A DNA stretch of 64,000 nt. It comes from an uncultured Verrucomicrobiae bacterium (GTDB lineage: Bacteria > Verrucomicrobiota > Verrucomicrobiia > Chthoniobacterales > Chthoniobacteraceae). The stretch is taken from positions 52,730 through 116,729 of the forward strand of contig CAWGMG010000017.1 in assembly GCA_963823615.1 (NCBI GenBank). The letters run 5' to 3'. A model generated the notes under the pieces. The model worked only from the letters and a program-made list of their open reading frames with translations. It was not told the DNA's origin and did no database searches. The first letter of the stretch is position 1. Each line of letters begins with the position of its first letter. A program made the position numbers and the translations under genes. This document shows, piece after piece, positions 4,659 to 62,025 of the stretch.

Positions 4659-5993
4659 AAGACATCAAACTGTTTCTAATGTTGCTGCTCGTGGCACCTG
4701 CGTCGCTCCTTGGCGGGACGTGGCTCTCCACAAAGACATTGAGTTGTTTCCGACGCAACCCTCCGGCGGCTGGTCCTTGACGCTGCCACCTAAAGGGGCG
4801 GCGGACTTCACGGTCGCATTCAAGCCGCTGAAAGTCAACGGCATCACCTACGTGTACAAGGACAAATCGGCCACGATCAAGATTACGGGTGACAATAAGG
4901 ATGTAATGTGGACAATGAGCAGTAATACGGCGGCAGCACTGCTCAATCCCAATTCGATCGCGGCGACGACCACAGCCGTCGTTACGGGGATCTGGGTGCC
5001 GGAGGGGGCGCGGGGCCGGGAGGCGGATCAGGGCCAAGCAGCATCACGGGTACAGCCACCGTCATCGGTGTCACACTTGACACCAAAGAGTGTGTTACTT
5101 GGCAAATCGATCCCAACGTGCAAAAAACGGACGGCAGTAGCGCCATCACGTACATCGCCACGGTCTACAAAGCCGATGGAACCGTGAAGGAAGATGCGCA
5201 ACTGACCTCGGTAGTCCCAATCGAGGTAAGATCGGAGTTCAATGGGCGTCCGCCACCTCCTTGGATTTCTAAATCGGACAGCCGAGCAAAGGGCGTAGCT
5301 TGGGGCGAAATCGTCTGTCCATTCCCGGCCTCTTCTAACGGAAAACTGCAACTAAGCTATGATGGGAAGACCTCCAATAGTCCATTACTTACGTTTATTC
5401 TTCCAGTGCAGATCTTATTTAAGACGAGCGGGACAATAATAAACGATCCGGAATACGTCGGGTATAAATACGCCGTGGTATATGGGCAGGGCGAGAACCT
5501 CGGGCCGTTGCCTATGGGGAGAGGGCGAGCCGAACACCCATCCTCTTACACCGCTCCGTTGATGGCCATGGCAAAGGTTCCGACTTTGCCAGGAATTAGC
5601 TTTCATTGGGTGCGACTTGTAACCCTAAGATCTTGGTTTTTTCAATTCGATCAGAACGGTAAATGCCAGGTGCTTTTCAGGACTGCTTTGAAGGGTCCTA
5701 CGCCGGACATTAATACGATGGAAGTCGTGCAGAATACGCCGAGTCCGCAGACTGGAAATATCTACATTTGGGATAACCCTGCAACGGACCCTTCTTACCA
5801 GCATCCCCCGGTGGGCGTGTACATTTACGAAAAGAAAAATTTCTACTATGCTGTGTACGACAATATAGCCACCCGGTTGCTTCCGCGGTGTTGTCGCAAA
5901 GCGCGTTCGTCCGTCGGATCGCCGGGACAGCGATCTTTACAAGCGATTATCAAGGCATCCAAAACCTCTTGCAGGTTGGAGAAGTTAGCATGA
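4655..5993 (+). CDS. hypothetical secreted protein, split over three frames (signal peptide 4655-4783; 4720-5187; 5118-5993)
   Basis: Signal peptide MKDIKLFLMLLLVAPASLLGG in frame 2 runs into the 4720 ORF and then the 5118 ORF; consistent with indel errors; low-GC island. Confidence 0.35.
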
Positions 5994-53962: not shown

Positions 53963-56928
53963 ATGGCATATCGTTTCGATGTCGCATTCTCCTTCGCCGG
54001 CCCTCACCGCGAGAAGGTGCGGGCCATCGCCGAGCTTGTCGCGGCGAAGCTCGGGAAGAAGCGCGTTTTCTTCGACGAGTGGTACCGAGCGGAAATCCTC
54101 GGGGGGAATATGCGCGTGCTGCTCCAGCGTATCTATGGAGAGAAAAGTCTCATGGTTGTCGCGGATCTTTCGCAAGACTACGCCGATCGGCCTTGGAGTC
54201 AGGGCGAAAGCGAGGCCATCGATGCTCTGCGGATGCGAATCGACTCGGCGCGCGACGAGACCGCGCGCCTGCGGGTGTTCATCGTGCGCTTCGGTCCCGG
54301 CGAGGTGCCTGGCGTCTTGGAAAACACCGGCTGGCTCGATGGCGCAGCCCTCTCCGTGGAAGAAATCGCCGGCGCGATTTTGGAGCGACTCGACCTGCTC
54401 AATGAACGCATGGGCGAAAGCGCCACCCCTGCCCCGCCACCGCCGGTCCCCTTGGCTCCCTCTCTTCCAGCGTCCCCCTCTTCCGCTCCGCCGATCCTCT
54501 TCTTTCACCCCGCTACCAACGACGCCCTCTACTCCCGGCGCGAGCGCGAGTTGGACTGGCTCGACGAGTGCGCGAAAAATCCCGCAATCCGCATCGCCAC
54601 CGTCACCGGCGTCGGTGGGCTGGGGAAGACCTCGCTCGTCGGGCATTGGATCGAGAAGGCGCGCGGCTGGCAGCATCGCGCCTTTCACGGCGTGTTCTTC
54701 TACAGCTTCTATTCCGATCGCGACCCGAAGCATTTCTTCGCGGCGTTCCTCCAATTCGTCTGCGAGCAGGAGAAGATCGAGGCCCTTCCTCCGGATCGTC
54801 CGCTCCATCATCTTGCGGCCGCAGCGGTGCGCAAGTGGTGCTACCTCGTGGTGCTCGATCGGCTCGAGGTGCTCCAGCACGACGAAAGCGATCCGCACTA
54901 CGGCTGGATCAACGACGGCGCGCTCAATGAATTCGTCGCGCGCGCCGGGGCGGCGGGGCCTTCGCTGCTCGTGCTCACCAGCCGCTTCCCCTTCCCGGAA
55001 GTCACGCGCGAGCATCCCGAGGCCGCCCGCGCGTGCGAGCTGCCCCTGCTTACCGACGACGAAGGCGCCGACCTGCTCGCCCATTGCGGTCTCGACGGCG
55101 GGCGGGAGAAGCTGCGCGGCTACAGCCATCAATTTGGCGGGCATCCGCTCGCGCTGCGGCTCTTTGCCGGCGCGTGCCTCGCGCAGCCCTTCGATGAACC
55201 GGAGACGGTGAGCCGGCACTTGCTCGCGGCAGGTGCGGAGGCGGGCGAAGAGGACGCGCATCGCCGGCAGTTCCGCAAGCTGCTGCTCTGGCTGCAAAAG
55301 AAACTCCCCGTAGAAAAGCGCCGACTGCTCCAGCTCGTCGCGCTCTTTCGCGAGCCGGTGCCCACAGCCACGCTCGCCGCGCTCGCCACGGGGCTCGATG
55401 CGATGAAGGCGGACTTCGGCGATTGCGACGCTGCGCGTCTCCTTTTCCTCCTTGATGCCCTGGTGCGTGATCAGTTTACTCCAGCGCGAGGAAGCGCCCG
55501 GCAGCGACACCGCCCGCTGGGCGGCGCATCCCATTGTGCGCGAGGTCTTCCGCGTCGAGGCACTGGCGTCTGGCGACACGGTCGCGCAGCAGTTTGCCGG
55601 GATCGTCGCGGGAAAGGGGGCGGGCCGCGCGCCCCGGAGCGTGGCGGAATTGCAGCCGATTCTGGAGGCGATCGAGTTGCTCCTCGCTGCGGGGGATTTC
55701 AAGTCGGCCGATGAGGTGTATCGCGGGCGGTTGGAGAATGGTGACGTATTCAAATGGATTCCCGCCCCGCATGAGGGGCTGCATTGCGCGCGGGGATTCA
55801 TCGAGCCGCAGGAACGTCGCGCAACGCTGGAGCAATTGGTCGGGCGGGAAGCGACAGCGCGCTACTTCAACGCTGTGGCGGGTCTTGGAAGCATTGTTGG
55901 CGAAATGGACCGGGTGGAGAGCCTGTATATTGAAATGCGCTACCTCTACACGGTCGAGTGCAATTGGAACGCCATCTCCGGTAGTTTCCAAAGCCTCGCG
56001 GCGGTTCAAACACTTCGCGGGATGCTGCGAGAGGCGGTCGCGCGCGCGAACGAGGCTCTCGCTTTTTGCGGGATCCAAGCAGTGAGGACATCTTGGAACG
56101 TCCCGCCCCTCCATCCAACGGACAAGCTGAACATTTTGATCGATAAAGATTTAAACTGCACTTCCCTCGCATACCGGGCAAACGCGCTTTCACTCGCGGG
56201 GGAATTGCCCGCCGCCGGTCGTGACTTTGCTTCGTCCGATACGCTCCAGCGCTTGGGTCACCGCGAAAACGTCGCACTTCACTCGCTCCGGGGCATCCAG
56301 TGGTGCCGCCATTGTCTGCGCCTCGGCGAGGCGGACGGCGCCCGCCGCCTCGCTGAGGCAAATTGGAGCGATCTGCGCGCGGAATCAATGGACCGCCGAC
56401 CTCGCCGCGTGCGACCTCCTCCTCGGTGAACTCGATTTCGCAGCGGGCGACCGCGATTCCGCCGAACAACGAATCGGCGCGGCCGTGCGGATCTTTCGCG
56501 AGGCCCGGCAGGGGATGGACCTCCCTGACGCGCTGCTCGCGCAGGCGCGGCTGCGGGGGAGCATTGAGGATTGCGAAGAGGCGCTGCGGCTCGCGGCCCG
56601 GAGCGGCTTTGCGCTGAAGCAGTGCGACGCCCTGAATCTCCGCGCCCGTCTCCGGCGTGAGGCCGGCCAGCCCGCCGACGCCGCCAAGGATGCCCGCGAC
56701 GCGCTCGATATCGCCGAGCGGTGCGGCTACTACTGGGGCCGGCATGAAGCCTTGCGCCAGCTTCGCGATGTCGCGAAGGCGCTCGGGAATCGCGCGGATG
56801 AGAGGCATTGGGACGAAGCCGAAAAGGCGCTGGCTGCGCGCATGAAGCCGGAGGTCGAAGAGGCGCTGCGGATCAATCGCGAGCACGATGCGGAAATGGA
56901 GCGGCTTTACGGAAGGCCGAAGCCGTAG
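53963..56928 (+). CDS. TIR - NB-ARC (STAND P-loop NTPase) - TPR protein, NLR-like; split over 3 frames (shifts ~55440 and ~56250)
   Basis: TIR: FDVAFSFAGPHREKVRAIAELVAAKL..VFFDEW..SLMVVADLSQDYADRPWSQGESEAI (conserved Glu present). P-loop IATVTGVGGLGKTSLV; hhhhD LVVLDRLE; LLVLTSRF; C-terminal TPR-like repeats to ..ERLYGRPKP. Confidence 0.7.
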
Positions 56929-57223
56929 CATAGGCAACCCTGGACCAAATGCGGACCGGTCGCTGCAATGGCGCCCACTCTATGTCAACAATTTGGGTTC
57001 GGCCATCGGCGCATCCAGGTAGCCCTGCCCGCGCCGGCACGGGCGACGTGACGATTCACGTGCTGTAACTCCGGAGCTTGGCGCCGCTCGCTTCCGCACC
57101 AACGCCCGGGAGGGGTGCGCCAGGCGGTGGAAAGGGCGGAGTTGTCATCGCGCACGGGGCGGCTCAGACTCATCGCGGTTCCCTGGGGGCACATCGGGGT
57201 CAGGCGACATTTCTTGACAGACC

Positions 57224-57229
57224 GGGCGG
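57224..57229 (+). promoter_or_regulatory. TTGACA -35-like hexamer ~30 nt upstream of transposase ATG (duplicated at 58809-58814)
   Basis: gggcacatcggggtcaggcgacatttcTTGACAgaccgggcgggttttcgtgaaatcgtcgcATG; whole ~75-nt block duplicated at 58775-58846. Confidence 0.35.
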
Positions 57230-57248
57230 GTTTTCGTGAAATCGTCGC

Positions 57249-58337
57249 ATGCCTCGCAGCTTGCGCATCCAGTACCCCGGCGCGTTTTATCACGTCATGG
57301 CGCGGGGCAATGGACGGGCGGATATCTTTCGCGGCGATGCGGACCGGACGCTTTTTCTCCGCACGCTCGGCGAAGCCTGTGGGCGGACCGGCTGGCGCGT
57401 GCACGCCTGGGTGCTGATGCGCAATCACTACCATGTGGTGCTGGAAACGCCGGAGCCGAATCTGGTCGAGGGGATGCAGTGGCTGCAGAATGCTTACACG
57501 CGGCGCTTCAACACGCGGCACCGCGGCTGGGGCCGGTTATTCGGCGACCGCTACAAGGCGGTGCCCGTGGAGGGGGAAGGGTACTACTACGAGACGCTGC
57601 TGAAATCGCGGGCGCATCACGCGCGCAGTCCGAATACCGTGGAGGGGGAAGGGTACTACTACGAGACGCTGCTGGATTACGTCCACCTGAACCCGGCGCG
57701 CGCGGGGTTGATTCCGATGGCCAGCGGCGGAAGTCTGCGCGACTACCCGTGGAGCAGCGTGGCGGCCGGATACGCGCTGCCGCCGGGGCGCCGGGCGAAA
57801 TGGCTCGCGGTGGAGGACGGCCTGGCGAGCTTTGGCTGCGGCGATACGGCGGCTGGCCGCCGCAGTTTTGTCGCGCGGCTCGATGTGCGCGCTCTGGAGG
57901 AGCCGCGAGCCAAGACGGGCTTGCCGGCGCTCGATCCGGAGCGTGACCGGCGGAGGAGCACGCTGGCGGACGGCTGGTACTGGGGGAGCCAAGCCTTCGC
58001 GGAGCGTCTGCTGGCGCTGGGGGAAGCAGTGATCGGACGTCCCGGGCACCGATCCGCGCGGAGTACGCAGGAGAAGCGCGCGCATGGCGAACTGGTCGCC
58101 CGCGAGCTACTCGAGGAAGGGCTCCGCCGGGCGAAGCTGACCCGTGAAGAGCTCCCCGCTCTTCCTGGGAGCGATCTGCGCAAAGTGGCGCTCGCCAGCG
58201 CGATCTGGGAGCAAACCATTGTGAGCATGGCATGGCTGGCGGAGCATCTGGCGATGCGGAGCGCGGCCAATGCGAGCCAGCAAATTCGCCGCTACCGGCT
58301 GGCCCAGGCCAAGCCGCTGTCAAGAAATGTCGCCTGA
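57249..58337 (+). CDS. IS200/IS605-family Y1 (HUH) transposase, RAYT-like N-domain fused to DnaA-C-terminal-like HTH domain
   Basis: AFYHVMARGNGRADIF..HAWVLMRNHYHVVLETPEPNLVEGMQWLQNAYTRRFN (HuH = HYH; catalytic Tyr in NAYTRRFN); C-terminus SDLRKVALASAIWEQTIVSMAWLAEHLAMRSAANASQQIRRYR resembles DnaA domain IV; internal 36-bp perfect direct repeat 57567-57602 / 57639-57674. Confidence 0.75.
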   Translation: MPRSLRIQYPGAFYHVMARGNGRADIFRGDADRTLFLRTLGEACGRTGWRVHAWVLMRNHYHVVLETPEPNLVEGMQWLQNAYTRRFNTRHRGWGRLFGDRYKAVPVEGEGYYYETLLKSRAHHARSPNTVEGEGYYYETLLDYVHLNPARAGLIPMASGGSLRDYPWSSVAAGYALPPGRRAKWLAVEDGLASFGCGDTAAGRRSFVARLDVRALEEPRAKTGLPALDPERDRRRSTLADGWYWGSQAFAERLLALGEAVIGRPGHRSARSTQEKRAHGELVARELLEEGLRRAKLTREELPALPGSDLRKVALASAIWEQTIVSMAWLAEHLAMRSAANASQQIRRYRLAQAKPLSRNVA

Positions 58338-58481
58338 CCCCTATGTTTAAGTGACCCCTATGTTTAAGTTCCCATCTCGCTATTTAAAACACCCGATGTC
58401 TGGCTCGTCGCCGGCGTCGCTTATGGTATCGCGACAGGTGAGAACGACGCTTTTACGGGCGAGGCATTATCAAAGCCATTT

Positions 58482-58673
58482 TTGCTGCCTTCGATCCCTG
58501 GAATAGCAGCCCCAGCTCAGAATGCGACGCCCCCAGAGACTCCACGATCAAGCCTATCGGCAGTCGGAACACCCGCTTCCATCGTTAAAGACCAAACGCG
58601 TAAGTGGCCGTGGGTGGTTGGAATACTCGGCTTGCTATCGCTCTTCGCGCTGGCTCTGAGACGCCGCGCCTAG
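58482..58673 (+). CDS. small secreted protein with PEP-CTERM-like tail (WPW-TM-RRR)
   Basis: ..KWPWVVGILGLLSLFALALRRRA*; lies in a locally AT-richer stretch. Confidence 0.3.
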   Translation: MLPSIPGIAAPAQNATPPETPRSSLSAVGTPASIVKDQTRKWPWVVGILGLLSLFALALRRRA

Positions 58674-58715
58674 CGTCGGCACGCACCCGGCCGGCCGTTT
58701 CCATATTACTGGGGG

Positions 58716-58797
58716 GCACATGGGGGTCAGCACATGGGGGTCAGCACATGGGGGTCAGCACATGGGGGTCAGCACATGGGTCAGCACATGGGGGTCA
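58716..58797 (+). repeat. tandem 14-bp repeat cacatgggggtcag x~6, an amplification of a unit present once at 57199-57212
   Basis: cacatgggggtcagcacatgggggtcagcacatgggggtcagcacatgggggtcagcacatgggtcagcacatgggggtcag. Confidence 0.85.
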
Positions 58798-58843
58798 GGC
58801 GACATTTCTTGACAGGCCGGGTGGGTTTTCGTGAAATCGTCGC

Positions 58844-58905
58844 ATGCCTCGCAGCTTGCGCATCCAGTACGCCGGCGCGTTTTATCACGTCATGGCGCGG
58901 GGCAC
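58844..58905 (+). pseudogene. truncated duplicate of the transposase 5' end (first ~20 codons plus promoter block)
   Basis: MPRSLRIQYAGAFYHVMARG identical/near-identical to 57249-57308, then diverges into the antisense 3' end of the HK gene. Confidence 0.6.
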
Positions 58906-58949
58906 TGCCTCGACACCTACTCGTAAACTCAGCCGCGGGCGCGCCCGGT

Positions 58950-60065
58950 CTACACGGCCGCGGCTGCGTACGGCGGCAACCGGAACCAGAAACACGCGCC
59001 GCCCGTCGGGCTGGGCCGGTAGCCGATCGTGCCGCCCCAGCGCTCGACGGTGATGCGGCAGAAGTAGAGGCCGAGGCCGGCTTTGCCGCGGATGCCGCCG
59101 GCGCTGGGCGCGAGCTTTTTGAAGAGATGCGGGAGCGCGGACTCGGGGACGCCGCGGCCGGAATCCATGACGGCGGCTTCGATCAGCTCGCCTTCGCGGC
59201 GCAGTTGGATGACGAGCTCGGTGCGCGGCGGGACGTGGCGCAGGGCGTTTTCGAGGAGGTTGGCGAAGATGCGCTCGAGGCGGGTCGTCTCGGCGGCGAC
59301 GAGGCAGGGGGCGCCGAGCGAGGGGTCGACGACGAGCCGCGTGGTGATCTCGTGGCGCCGGCAGGCGATGGTGACCTGGTCGAGCGCGGATTGCGCGACG
59401 GCGCGCAGGTCGGGCGCGGTCTCGGGCGTGAGGGTGAGCGATTCCAGCGCGGCGGCCTCGGCGGAGAAGACCTCGAGGATTTGCTGGATGAGGGTCCGCT
59501 GGCGGCGCGCCGCGTCGCCGGCCATCTCGACCATGCGCGTGATGCCGGGCGAGAGCGCCTGGGTTTGCAGAATGTCGAGCAGCCCGCTCATGCCGGCGAG
59601 CGGGTTCGCGAGGTCGTGAACGATGCAATGGACGAGCACTTCTTTTTTCTCGATCTCGCGGGCGAGCGCCTCGTGCTCGAGCACGGCGTGGCGCGCGGGA
59701 TTGAGGATCAGGAACTGGCGCGTGTGCTCTTCGTCGACGCGGTTGACGAGGAGGAATTGCTCGCCGTCGCGGGCGAGCGCCACGGCGGCGAAGTGCGAGC
59801 TGGAAAGCGCCGTCTCGGTCCAGATGCCGGAGTGGATGGTGCCATCGCGCCCGGCGGTCCAGAAGGCCTCCGCTTCCTCCATGAACTGGCTGAGGAAATG
59901 GGAGCGCTTTCCGACGACGAAGACCTGCGGGACCAGGGTGCTGGTGACGAGCGGCTCGCACCAGAGCGGCACGGGATAGAGCGCCTCGAACAGGCCGGCG
60001 GCGGTGCGGCGAAAGGCCATGCTCTCCAGCGCGGAGAGGAGTTGCTCGAGGGTGGAGGGCGTCAT
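58950..60065 (-). CDS. sensor histidine kinase (cytoplasmic sensory domain - HisKA - HATPase_c)
   Basis: H-box VHCIVHDLANPLAGMSG; N-box RIFANLLENALRH; G-boxes DSGRGVP and GLGLYFCRITVERWGG. Confidence 0.85.
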   Translation of the reverse strand: MTPSTLEQLLSALESMAFRRTAAGLFEALYPVPLWCEPLVTSTLVPQVFVVGKRSHFLSQFMEEAEAFWTAGRDGTIHSGIWTETALSSSHFAAVALARDGEQFLLVNRVDEEHTRQFLILNPARHAVLEHEALAREIEKKEVLVHCIVHDLANPLAGMSGLLDILQTQALSPGITRMVEMAGDAARRQRTLIQQILEVFSAEAAALESLTLTPETAPDLRAVAQSALDQVTIACRRHEITTRLVVDPSLGAPCLVAAETTRLERIFANLLENALRHVPPRTELVIQLRREGELIEAAVMDSGRGVPESALPHLFKKLAPSAGGIRGKAGLGLYFCRITVERWGGTIGYRPSPTGGACFWFRLPPYAAAAV

Positions 60066-60429: not shown

Positions 60430-60945
60430 TCAGGGGCGGGGCCGCACCAGTTGCGCGGCGGGCTTGGCCAGCGTCAGCTCCGCGAGCGCCTGAAAACCGG
60501 TGGGGACTTGCGCGCCGGTCTTCGCGCTGGTCCGGAAAGACGCCAGACCCTCGGGCACGGCAAGCTCCGCCTCGGAGCCTTCCACGAACAGATCGCATTT
60601 ATTGAAGAGGACGATCGACGGGACTTTTCCCATGGTCTCCTCGATCCGCCGGCGCAGCCCGAGCGCGACCTCGAGCGTGCCGTGCCGCGTGATGTCGACG
60701 ACGTAAACCAGGCCGTGGGCGCCGGCGAGGTATGAGAGTTGCACCGAGTGAAAGGCGTCCTCTCCCGCGAGATCCCAAAGGATGAGCGAGACCCCGCCAG
60801 CGCTGGTTTCAACGACGGCGGTGTCGATCTTGACGCCGACCGTGGTGAGGTAGCGATCCGTGAAGACCCCTTTGCAAAAGCGATGCACGAGGCTCGTCTT
60901 GCCGACGGCGAACGCTCCGATCATGCATATTTTTCGCTGTTCCAT
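60430..60945 (-). CDS. Ras-like small GTPase
   Basis: G1 GAFAVGKTS, G3 WDLAGE, G4 NKCDL, G5 SAK. Confidence 0.8.
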   Translation of the reverse strand: MEQRKICMIGAFAVGKTSLVHRFCKGVFTDRYLTTVGVKIDTAVVETSAGGVSLILWDLAGEDAFHSVQLSYLAGAHGLVYVVDITRHGTLEVALGLRRRIEETMGKVPSIVLFNKCDLFVEGSEAELAVPEGLASFRTSAKTGAQVPTGFQALAELTLAKPAAQLVRPRP

Positions 60946-60951
60946 GGGCCG

Positions 60952-62025
60952 TCATAAATCGCCGCGGCGGCGCACAATGTCGCGGTCCAGCGAATGGAAT
61001 TCCGCGAGCCGCAGGTGGAGCTTCTCCTCCGGCAGCGCGAGCTGCCGCGCCAGGTCCACCGGGTCATCGGAGAGCGGGTCGCGCATTCCGTCGACATAGA
61101 AATGCGAGCCGTCGACGCGCGTCTGCATGACGACAATCCCCGGGCGGCTCCGCAGCGCCTGCTCGAGCCGCCCCCAGCGGTGGTGATTCCATAGGGTGAA
61201 CGCGGCCCACCACAGGAGGAGTGCGGCGACCACACCGCCGACGATGTGAAACGGCGTGATGCCGCCCTTCTTTTTCGGCGGCTGCTCCTGCCGCTGCTCC
61301 TGGAGGCAGCCTTTCATCAGCTCGGCGCAGGAGCGGAAGCTCTCGGGCGACGTCTCCTGCTGCGCGAGCGCCTTCAGGTGATCCTGGTGAATCGCGGCGA
61401 CAGTTTCATGGATGACCTCGCGGTACTGCTGCGGCGGATTGCCGCGAATCTCCGCCGCGAGCACCGCTTCCGGACCTGATTCGATCCAGAGCGTGGCGTC
61501 GTCGATCGTTACCGAGCCGATCTCTTTTTCCGTGGTGCGAAAAGCGTCGCGCATGAAGTCCTGGATCGCGGTCAGCATGGCCGAGATCGCCTGGCTGTTC
61601 TCCGCCTTCGCGGGATCGAGCGCGACGTGCTGCAAGAGGAGGCCGCTCTTTTTCTCGATGAGAAAGACCTGCTCGACGCGGTAGACCAGCGTGCGAATGA
61701 GGACGACCTCGGCGAGCGTTTTGCCGGTGCGCTTCGCCTCCAGCCGCCAGCGGATGCTCTGCGGCGAGAGGCTGTGCTCGACGGTCTCGTTGAGCGACTG
61801 GATCATCTTCTCCAGCGCGTGCGCGATGGAGCGGCGCACGATGCCGCCGATGATGGGGAAGAGCGACTCGGTGAGGATGCCGGGGTTCAGCTCGATCGAG
61901 TGCCGGATCGTGCGCTCAGTCACCGGGGTCATCGCCCGCACGAGCTTCTCGTCGACGTACGCCTCGTCCAGGCCGCCCGGCAGCGGACTGGCGGCGGGCT
62001 CGGGAACGGCTCCGGGTTGGGTCAT
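60952..62025 (-). CDS. hypothetical membrane protein (operon partner of the small GTPase)
   Basis: Central TM ITPFHIVGGVVAALLLWWAAFTLW; 6-nt gap to the GTPase gene; no confident domain. Confidence 0.5.
   Translation of the reverse strand: MTQPGAVPEPAASPLPGGLDEAYVDEKLVRAMTPVTERTIRHSIELNPGILTESLFPIIGGIVRRSIAHALEKMIQSLNETVEHSLSPQSIRWRLEAKRTGKTLAEVVLIRTLVYRVEQVFLIEKKSGLLLQHVALDPAKAENSQAISAMLTAIQDFMRDAFRTTEKEIGSVTIDDATLWIESGPEAVLAAEIRGNPPQQYREVIHETVAAIHQDHLKALAQQETSPESFRSCAELMKGCLQEQRQEQPPKKKGGITPFHIVGGVVAALLLWWAAFTLWNHHRWGRLEQALRSRPGIVVMQTRVDGSHFYVDGMRDPLSDDPVDLARQLALPEEKLHLRLAEFHSLDRDIVRRRGDL

Follow-up and report, generated by a model that had tools for sequence, protein, structure and literature searches.

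We analyzed a 64,000-nt stretch of DNA (the window) from an uncultured Verrucomicrobiae bacterium of the Chthoniobacteraceae (GenBank assembly GCA_963823615.1, contig CAWGMG010000017.1, positions 52,730 to 116,729 of the forward strand) and found that a transposase-like gene at positions 57249-58337, together with the repeats that surround it, very probably constitutes a TIRtron, i.e. an element of about 1.16 kb resembling an insertion sequence (IS), in which one TIRYT gene coding for a Y1/HUH protein lies between terminal inverted repeats (TIRs) of 30 nt. This class of elements has already been described: Di Nocera et al. (2013, PMC3733652) gave the name TIRYT to RAYT-like genes that are flanked by long TIRs within TIRtrons, and reported that these TIRs share the sequence GGGGWSAS, overlap the gene ends and occur as singles, dimers or groups, while most TIRYTs were assigned by Quentin et al. 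(2018, PMC6006769) to TnpAY1 subclass 2.1, the equivalent of group 1 in the RAYT classification of Bertels. The TIRYT class as encountered here corresponds to this subclass 2.1 or RAYT group 1, and the locus is an ordinary member of it that has undergone ordinary decay in the form of a relic copy and a private insertion. Among the branches of the Y1 HUH superfamily, subclass 2.1 ranks second in size. To what is known of it the locus and its relatives add a verrucomicrobial lineage with more than 2,800 homologues, a clean TIR consensus of the form GGGGTCAGG-N8-CTTGAC, fold-level confirmation that the C-terminal domain resembles domain IV of DnaA, and a testable prediction of a cleavage site drawn from the recurrent end-point of stutter repeats at the element termini.

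Terminal inverted repeats of the element

A repeat search of the window recovered an inverted repeat of 30 nt, 97% complementary, whose arms at 57191-57220 and 58317-58346 bracket the gene, and a third copy of the left arm at 58786-58815. This repeat, which organises the locus, was absent from a preliminary description of the same DNA. The principal features of the element are the following:

57191..57220, plus strand: left TIR (TIR-L), with its core at 57196-57219 (GGGGTCAGGCGACATTTCTTGACA), the GGGGWSAS motif (GGGGTCAG) and TTGACA as its inner end
57249..58337, plus strand: TIRYT gene, 362 aa, encoding from N- to C-terminus a Y1/HUH nuclease domain, a helical middle part and a helix-turn-helix (HTH) domain similar to DnaA domain IV
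57423..57434, plus strand: HUH motif N59-H60-Y61-H62 (NHYH)
57678..57680, plus strand: predicted catalytic tyrosine Y144 in DYVHLNP (Y120 in the uninterrupted protein)
58053..58334, plus strand: C-terminal 94-aa DnaA-domain-IV-like domain (predicted DNA-binding), its last residues (..LSRNVA) encoded inside the right TIR
58317..58346, minus strand: right TIR (TIR-R), overlapping the last 7 codons of the gene, stop included

The 24-mer core is present in exactly 3 copies in the window, all of them at this locus, with 0 matches in 100 shuffles, and the other 62 kb contain no further match to either GGGGTCAGG or the 24-mer. All three arms carry GGGGTCAG, which fits the published GGGGWSAS (PMC3733652), at their outer end, and the core pattern at the locus can be written as GGGGTCAGG-N8-CTTGACA. 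Inverted repeats of the form GGGGTCAGG-N8-CTTGAC(A) likewise flank homologues in Chthoniobacter, in metagenome-assembled genomes (MAGs) of Chthoniobacterales, in Prosthecobacter and in Verrucomicrobiales. In these relatives about 30-50 nt separate the consensus from the start codon downstream of it, the complement lies over or just past the stop, and the N8 varies between loci while matching between both arms of any one locus; the overlap of TIR-R with the 3' end of the gene recurs in the loci L004, L008 and L009. The same GGGGTCAGG-N8-CTTGAC consensus also flanks relatives of 312-329 aa in Desulfobacterota, Aquificota, Acidobacteriota and WOR-3 (L015, L020, L023, L027, L031, L034 and others), the proteins of which align with only the first ~190 aa of the window protein, at 40-50% identity. 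In a locus from Verrucomicrobiales (L008:2944-4053) the protein is 50% identical to that of the window and yet the 23-nt TIR core, GGGGTCAGGCGACATTTCTTGAC, is identical, which implies that the TIR is far more conserved than the protein presumed to act on it. The locus shares with the published TIRtrons a RAYT-like Y1/HUH gene, long TIRs with GGGGWSAS, the overlap of a TIR with the 3' end of the gene, and TIRs that are also found single, dimeric or clustered.

Some other readings of the TIR were tried and set aside. A hairpin within each arm (stem GTCAGG/CTTGAC) is no more stable than in shuffled sequence, a single arm folding with a dG of -1.2 kcal/mol and a z of about 0. The resemblance of the inner part of the TIR to a DnaA box amounts to about 6 of the 8 specified positions as judged by eye, is not significant, and was dropped. 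A search of Rfam gave nothing above chance. The TTGACA, which the preliminary description had taken for part of a promoter, is the inner end of the TIR and is conserved because it belongs to it; no sigma-70-like promoter passes a consensus scan.

The HUH nuclease and its C-terminal domain

The protein matches the Pfam Y1_Tnp model over aa 14-110 (E=4.3e-9), which bears out the IS200/RAYT-like HUH domain recognized in the preliminary description, and its homologues number more than 2,867 matches, typically of 338-350 aa and often labelled RayT or "transposase" by their sources. We used two alignments, A1 and A2, of 37 and 57 homologues respectively, in which NHYH, DYVHLNP and PWSS (WSS) are invariant or nearly so, the HUH motif and Y144 being invariant in both. 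In a comparison based on the family profile the HUH motif aligns with H59-M60-H61 of E. coli TnpAREP and the tyrosine of DY(V/I)HLNP with Y115, the catalytic tyrosine of that enzyme (PMC3479197). The catalytic residue had earlier been placed in NAYTRRFN; as some homologues have C, F or V in its place, this tyrosine is excluded as the nucleophile, and the residue predicted to take the role is the invariant Y144. The N-terminal domain has the fold and the catalytic motifs of TnpAREP, a nuclease/strand-transferase acting on single-stranded DNA, and fold searches with the full-length protein gave matches to this domain only.

The comparison with E. coli TnpAREP (a RAYT, PDB 4er8) extends to the surroundings of the gene, which in both cases is flanked by cognate repeats in inverted orientation; moreover, relatives of the window element have hairpin-forming repeat doublets, as TnpAREP has its REPINs. 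There are also clear differences: TnpAREP is a protein of 165 aa without a DNA-binding C-terminal domain, and its repeats are individually palindromic, GTAG-tagged hairpins in hundreds of copies, whereas the arm of the window element does not fold, its tag is GGGGTCAG and no dispersed copies are seen in the 64 kb. A strict RAYT/REPtron with palindromic, genome-abundant repetitive extragenic palindromes (REPs) is contradicted by these non-folding arms and by the confinement of GGGGTCAGG and the 24-mer to the locus within the 64 kb.

Subclass 2.1 has been characterized (PMC6006769) by the motifs NH[YF]H, Y[IV]HLNP and SS, a 'W' motif reading W[EQ] or FQ, a C-terminal HTH related to Bac_DnaA_C, HTH_23 or HTH_28, the lack of a REP, about 1.9 copies per genome and a median protein length of 238 aa. 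The window family agrees with it in having NHYH, Y[IV]HLNP and SS, a C-terminal HTH related to Bac_DnaA_C, a low copy number and no REP. It departs from the subclass in these respects: 1) the protein is longer, with 338 aa (362 in the window) against the median of 238, and has an additional helical middle region. 2) The 'W/FQ' motif reads FG; by our own reading of A1 and A2 this position is LFGDRY, with F98 and G99 invariant, which differs from the listed consensus, and it is LFQGRY in the relatives from other phyla. 3) The C-terminal domain has diverged past detection by Pfam. 4) The host belongs to Verrucomicrobiota, a phylum not highlighted for the subclass by the surveys.

The C-terminal domain was modelled alone for fold comparison, and the predicted fold of the last 94 aa matches DnaA domain IV (Bac_DnaA_C, PF08299; PDB 3pvp, 1j1v, 1l8q), with a long connector helix followed by an HTH that aligns in register. 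At the level of the predicted structure, then, this part of the protein has the fold of the domain by which DnaA binds double-stranded DNA. The preliminary description had proposed a fused DnaA-domain-IV-like C-terminus and had made the proposal depend on a profile match; the predicted fold and distant relatives speak for it, and profile searches with this protein gave no such match. Pfam yielded no DnaA_C match at E<=1 for the whole protein or at E<=10 for 26 C-termini of the family, where only scattered winged-HTH matches appeared; Pfam and NCBIfam gave no DnaA_C for either the whole protein or its C-terminal 145 aa; phmmer and a family-profile hmmsearch against the PDB returned chance matches and a weak match to TnpAREP, and none to DnaA; and when the C-terminal profile was compared by hhalign with domain IV of E. 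coli DnaA, the probability was 0.1%. A search of the C-terminal 124 aa against 1.84 billion proteins recovered 656 matches, which are fragment-like by length and unannotated and show no clear new architectures.

Relatives of similar length from Desulfobacterota, WOR-3 and other phyla have sub-threshold matches to Bac_DnaA_C (E 2e-4 to 7e-2), and the C-terminal profile of the relatives from other phyla aligns with E. coli DnaA domain IV at a hhalign probability of 69% (E=4e-5). In the absence of a direct profile match the DnaA-like reading is thus supported by the fold and by transitivity. Two findings tell against it, namely that the step from the profile of these relatives to the C-terminus of the window family is weak, albeit in register (hhalign E=0.016), and that the DnaA-likeness of the window protein itself is undetectable by sequence profiles. 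The likeness to DnaA also has definite limits: significant sequence similarity to domain IV is lacking, with no match above the Pfam gathering threshold; the TIR is not a DnaA box (TTATNCACA); and the protein has neither an AAA+ domain nor a demonstrated tie to replication initiation. In the hhalign alignment the base-contacting segment that is RDHTTV in DnaA reads RSAANA here; these altered residues of the recognition helix are in keeping with a new binding specificity, a suggestion made by Quentin et al. too.

Movement, derivatives and stutter arrays

Two pairs of copies, each within one MAG, bear on mobility. L001 and L007 are 95.2% identical over 1,171 nt that are bounded by the TIRs and set in unrelated flanks, and L004 and L005 are 86.9% identical over 1,124 nt. 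As such same-genome copies share TIR-bounded homology in unrelated flanks, whole elements have moved. Their flanks hint at a possible target preference, ..AT[A/G]|GGGG. An exact scan of metagenomes with the 24-mer recovered 37 loci, which comprise complete elements, many TIRs without a nearby gene, short pairs and doublets. Some of these are +/- pairs of TIRs about 120 nt apart without a transposase gene, i.e. miniature derivatives of about 150 bp that resemble miniature inverted-repeat transposable elements (MITEs); others are gene-less -/+ (tail-to-head) doublets with an A/T-rich spacer of 8-50 nt, which are REPIN-like derivatives of TIRYT ends. The two doublets that were folded (L096 and L102) form perfect hairpins of 24-28 bp, with a dG of -30 to -35 kcal/mol and a z of -11 to -14. 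The derivatives are located as follows:

Miniature derivatives: L105:131-278; L106:1765-1912; L112:1478-1619
TIR doublets: L096:1098-1154; L102:2661-2717; L111:2776-2849; L113:2426-2497; L115:381-437

The picture is that of a low-copy IS-like element with non-autonomous derivatives, as sketched in PMC3733652. Partial copies were also seen. At L009:2108-4100 a truncated copy, consisting of the left TIR and 837 nt (98.4% identical), abuts a complete copy, and the latter has two right ends 51 nt apart; L001 has a third, right-end-only relic at 4716-5212. A bias toward left ends among truncated copies was considered and rejected, right-end relics such as the latter existing too.

Part of this evidence would also suit domestication, which the preliminary description had thought possible, in the form of a REPtron-like system in which a host-retained, non-moving nuclease of the RAYT type maintains or disperses short TIR repeats, the TIRs that flank the gene being merely two of them. 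The gene-less solo TIRs and inverted doublets in the metagenome loci, the folding of doublets as perfect hairpins in the manner of REPINs, and the low number of copies per genome are all in keeping with it; RAYT group 1 itself averages fewer than 2 copies and is only partly IS-like (Bertels et al. 2017, PMC5581495; PMC6006769). We consider domestication unlikely nonetheless and do not favour it, in that the homology of copies from one MAG starts and stops at the TIRs amid unrelated flanks, a near-identical second copy of the window protein (P0001) lies on another contig, truncated and nested copies occur, and many homologues sit on contigs of about 1.1-1.4 kb, which are typical of collapsed repeats. 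In addition, single arms do not fold, and the lack of any other TIR motif in the remaining 62 kb is unlike the densities reached by REPs.

The ends of the element are further marked by tandem repeats, two of which lie at the locus:

58335..58368, no strand assigned: two tandem 17-nt units (TGACCCCTATGTTTAAG), found both by Tandem Repeats Finder (TRF) and by the repeat search, the first starting in the stop codon
58716..58798, plus strand: 14-mer array, 6.1 copies with 94% matches by TRF, unit GCACATGGGGGTCA, one unit without GG

Both had been noted in the preliminary description, as a 17-bp repeat in two copies at the transposase stop and as 5-6 tandem 14-mers, and both stand. The 14-mer unit is made up of 6-7 nt of flank and the first 7-8 nt of the TIR, and the array merges with the TIR of a second, truncated element copy; at the original site there is one copy of the 14-mer, with a single mismatch, at 57190-57203. 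Seven matches to the 14-mer were observed against a mean of 0.23 per shuffle, and no shuffle reached 7. Similarly, the 17-nt unit combines 10 nt of flank with the outermost 7 nt of TIR-R, which read GGGGTCA on the opposite strand. Hence, both arrays are repeated copies of flank plus TIR tip. Such stutter arrays recur in the family: extra copies of flank plus GG are seen outward of 30 of 115 TIR ends, compared with 7 in the inward direction, which served as control. All of them are in elements of the verrucomicrobial type and none at ends from other phyla. Within the arrays the units have a common outer start point and a variable inward extension. Among units reaching at least 3 nt into the TIR the end-points peak at TIR position 7-8, after GGGGTCA(G) (27/56 units, from 12 independent ends), and a second peak falls inside the G-run. 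The longest array, at L098:1-95, comprises no fewer than 8 units of GGAGCGATAGG(GG), in which the number of G varies, and runs into the TIR of a complete element. Arrays of this kind, common in the verrucomicrobial lineage, are undescribed in the papers on TIRYTs (PMC3733652, PMC6006769, PMC5581495).

With units that start at one outer point and mostly stop after GGGGTCA(G), the enzyme would be expected to nick inside its own TIR. We therefore put forward, as a tentative and rather doubtful proposal, that the arrays are in vivo footprints of the TIRYT nuclease nicking its own TIR at the GGGGWSAS end, where break and repair would give rise to them. As to how the element works, in the most likely scheme the C-terminal domain would dock on the inner conserved half of the TIR (..CTTGACA) in double-stranded form, placing the HUH/Tyr active site at the outer GGGGTCAG tip, and the HUH domain would nick and rejoin DNA at GGGGTCA(G), the unit boundaries after this sequence being proposed to mark the cleavage site. 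Recurrent breakage, slippage or polymerase run-off at the GGGGWSAS end, followed by microhomology-mediated re-priming, would generate the arrays. With TIR-L placed directly ahead of the start codon, the protein could also autoregulate its expression by binding this arm. If the arrays are indeed such footprints, they would give the TIRYT class, which is uncharacterised, its first predicted site of cleavage and point to a chemistry unlike the peel-and-paste of IS200, with a DnaA-like anchor on double-stranded DNA combined with an HUH nick at the TIR tip.

The arrays might instead be functional iterons, that is, clusters of binding sites for the DnaA-like domain, comparable to groups of DnaA boxes, that regulate expression or the choice of ends and are no by-products of breakage. 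The repeated unit always includes the conserved GGGGTCA tip, the protein has a DnaA-domain-IV-like predicted fold and the arrays recur across many lineages, as one would expect of iterons. That they occur at only 30/115 TIR ends and at 0 in other phyla, that near-identical elements differ in the number and the length of their units (the left end in the window has 1 copy, that of its relic 6), and that units are often cut to 2-4 G, which a binding site should not tolerate, make this quite improbable.

Several points weigh against a mobile element whose nuclease acts at its own TIR tips. Replication slippage between G-runs alone, with no part played by the enzyme, could produce the arrays, and for the short units this is the simpler alternative. 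The binding of the C-terminal domain to the TIR is a prediction, and cleavage site, strand and substrate are all deduced; a literature search broadened to include newer work found no biochemical study of any TIRYT. The copy number is low, with one full copy in the 64 kb, and plasmids contain only relatives of <=39% identity, the family itself not being found on known plasmids, both of which suggest that activity may be rare. Lastly, the insertion within the gene of the window and the copy numbers of its repeats come from a single assembly.

Local lesions and neighbouring genes

Downstream of the full copy and within its gene the locus includes these further features:

57603..57674, plus strand: private in-frame insertion, composed of a 34-nt filler (57603-57636) and a second copy of a 38-nt segment (57637-57674)
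58369..58715, plus strand: spacer from TIR-R to the second left end, G+C 58% as against 65% for the window
58784..58907, plus strand: truncated second copy, comprising the left TIR (58786-58815), the leader and the first 21 codons

The truncated copy lies 0.44 kb downstream of the full one and repeats 57189-57312 at 58784-58907 (124 nt, 96% identical, spacing 1595); tblastn finds a match to aa 1-21 in it. The preliminary description had seen a duplicated block about 1.6 kb downstream, correctly as to its presence and distance, and had given it about 75 bp and 20 codons instead of 124 nt and 21 codons. Its 5 differences in 124 positions identify it as what is left of a separate insertion, older or diverged, instead of a fresh duplication. 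The match to the full copy is lost at 58907, at a distance of 43 nt from the stop codon of a convergent histidine-kinase gene. For annotation this means that apparent "promoter duplications" and unusual tandem repeats beside genes of this kind are to be read as element ends.

Inside the gene, a direct repeat of 38 nt (57565-57602 and 57637-57674), 100% identical at a spacing of 72, is perfect, as had been stated for a 36-bp version of it, and the resulting 24-aa insert is in frame; it is not a duplication of 24 residues, being composed of 12 duplicated ones (VEGEGYYYETLL) and 12 new ones (KSRAHHARSPNT), the latter encoded by the 34-nt filler, for which no match longer than 11 nt was found elsewhere in the window. 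P0001, the nearest protein, has precisely these 24 aa missing and is otherwise identical to the window protein at 337/338 positions; the two fall into one 90% cluster and come from different contigs, of 183,753 and 944,724 bp. Hence, the 72-bp insertion is a recent private lesion, a duplication accompanied by filler DNA. It adds 24 aa to the loop just before the helix that bears the predicted catalytic tyrosine. At the same site the loop is 7 aa longer in the relatives L008-L010, so it tolerates changes in length.

One might attribute the array counts, the internal 38-nt repeat with its filler and the partial second copy to the mis-assembly of a multicopy element, in other words to an artefact of assembly or sequencing. 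The element is multicopy, short tandem repeats are error-prone in short-read assemblies, and the window protein and P0001 differ essentially by the insertion alone. Such an artefact is very unlikely all the same, given comparable arrays in dozens of independent assemblies, an in-frame insertion with 34 nt of unique sequence that repeat collapse or expansion would not create, and a relic whose 5 differences in 124 positions make it a distinct sequence. Finally, a classical IS200/IS605-type element moving by single-strand peel-and-paste with subterminal hairpins is extremely improbable despite the Y1_Tnp domain and a fold similarity to TnpA of IS608 and ISDra2, for these have subterminal hairpins on one strand, no TIR, a Y...Q motif, a dimer of ~150-aa subunits and often tnpB, none of which applies here: the ends are inverted repeats whose arms do not fold, the tyrosine motif is Y..LNP of the RAYT type, the best structural match is TnpAREP, a monomer, the protein (338-362 aa) is more than twice as long as IS200 TnpA, the NCBIfam transpos_IS200 model scores E=0.056 and 13.7 bits against a cutoff of 55 bits, and, going by the list of open reading frames (ORFs), none of the size of TnpB fits in the 1.16-kb unit, the neighbouring ORFs not having been scanned for TnpB.

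The spacer between the full copy and its relic is probably outside the element. From the element boundary (58369) one frame stays open as far as 58673, its product terminating in a hydrophobic helix and then RRRA (..WPWVVGILGLLSLFALALRRRA); a Pfam scan of the spacer gave no match. Possibly a host gene encoding a membrane-anchored or sorting-signal protein was cut here by the insertion of the element, and the frame is what remains of its 3' part. The histidine kinase that is convergent with the relic (HisKA + HATPase_c, 58950-60065, minus strand) is followed on the same strand by a small GTPase of the Ras/Roc family (60430-60945; Ras 7.7e-26) and, beyond it, by a 357-aa protein without a Pfam match (60952-62025). 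Immediately upstream of the element there are three overlapping ORFs on the plus strand (53963-55714, 55452-56429 and 56221-56928) with weak Pfam matches to TIR_2 (8e-4), NACHT (7e-4), NB-ARC (3e-3) and TPR_12 (1e-3). Together they look like a single STAND-type NTPase with a Toll/interleukin-1 receptor (TIR) domain, a NACHT/NB-ARC module and TPRs, and thus a candidate defence-type gene, which may be frameshifted or may have been miscalled by the mechanical listing of ORFs.

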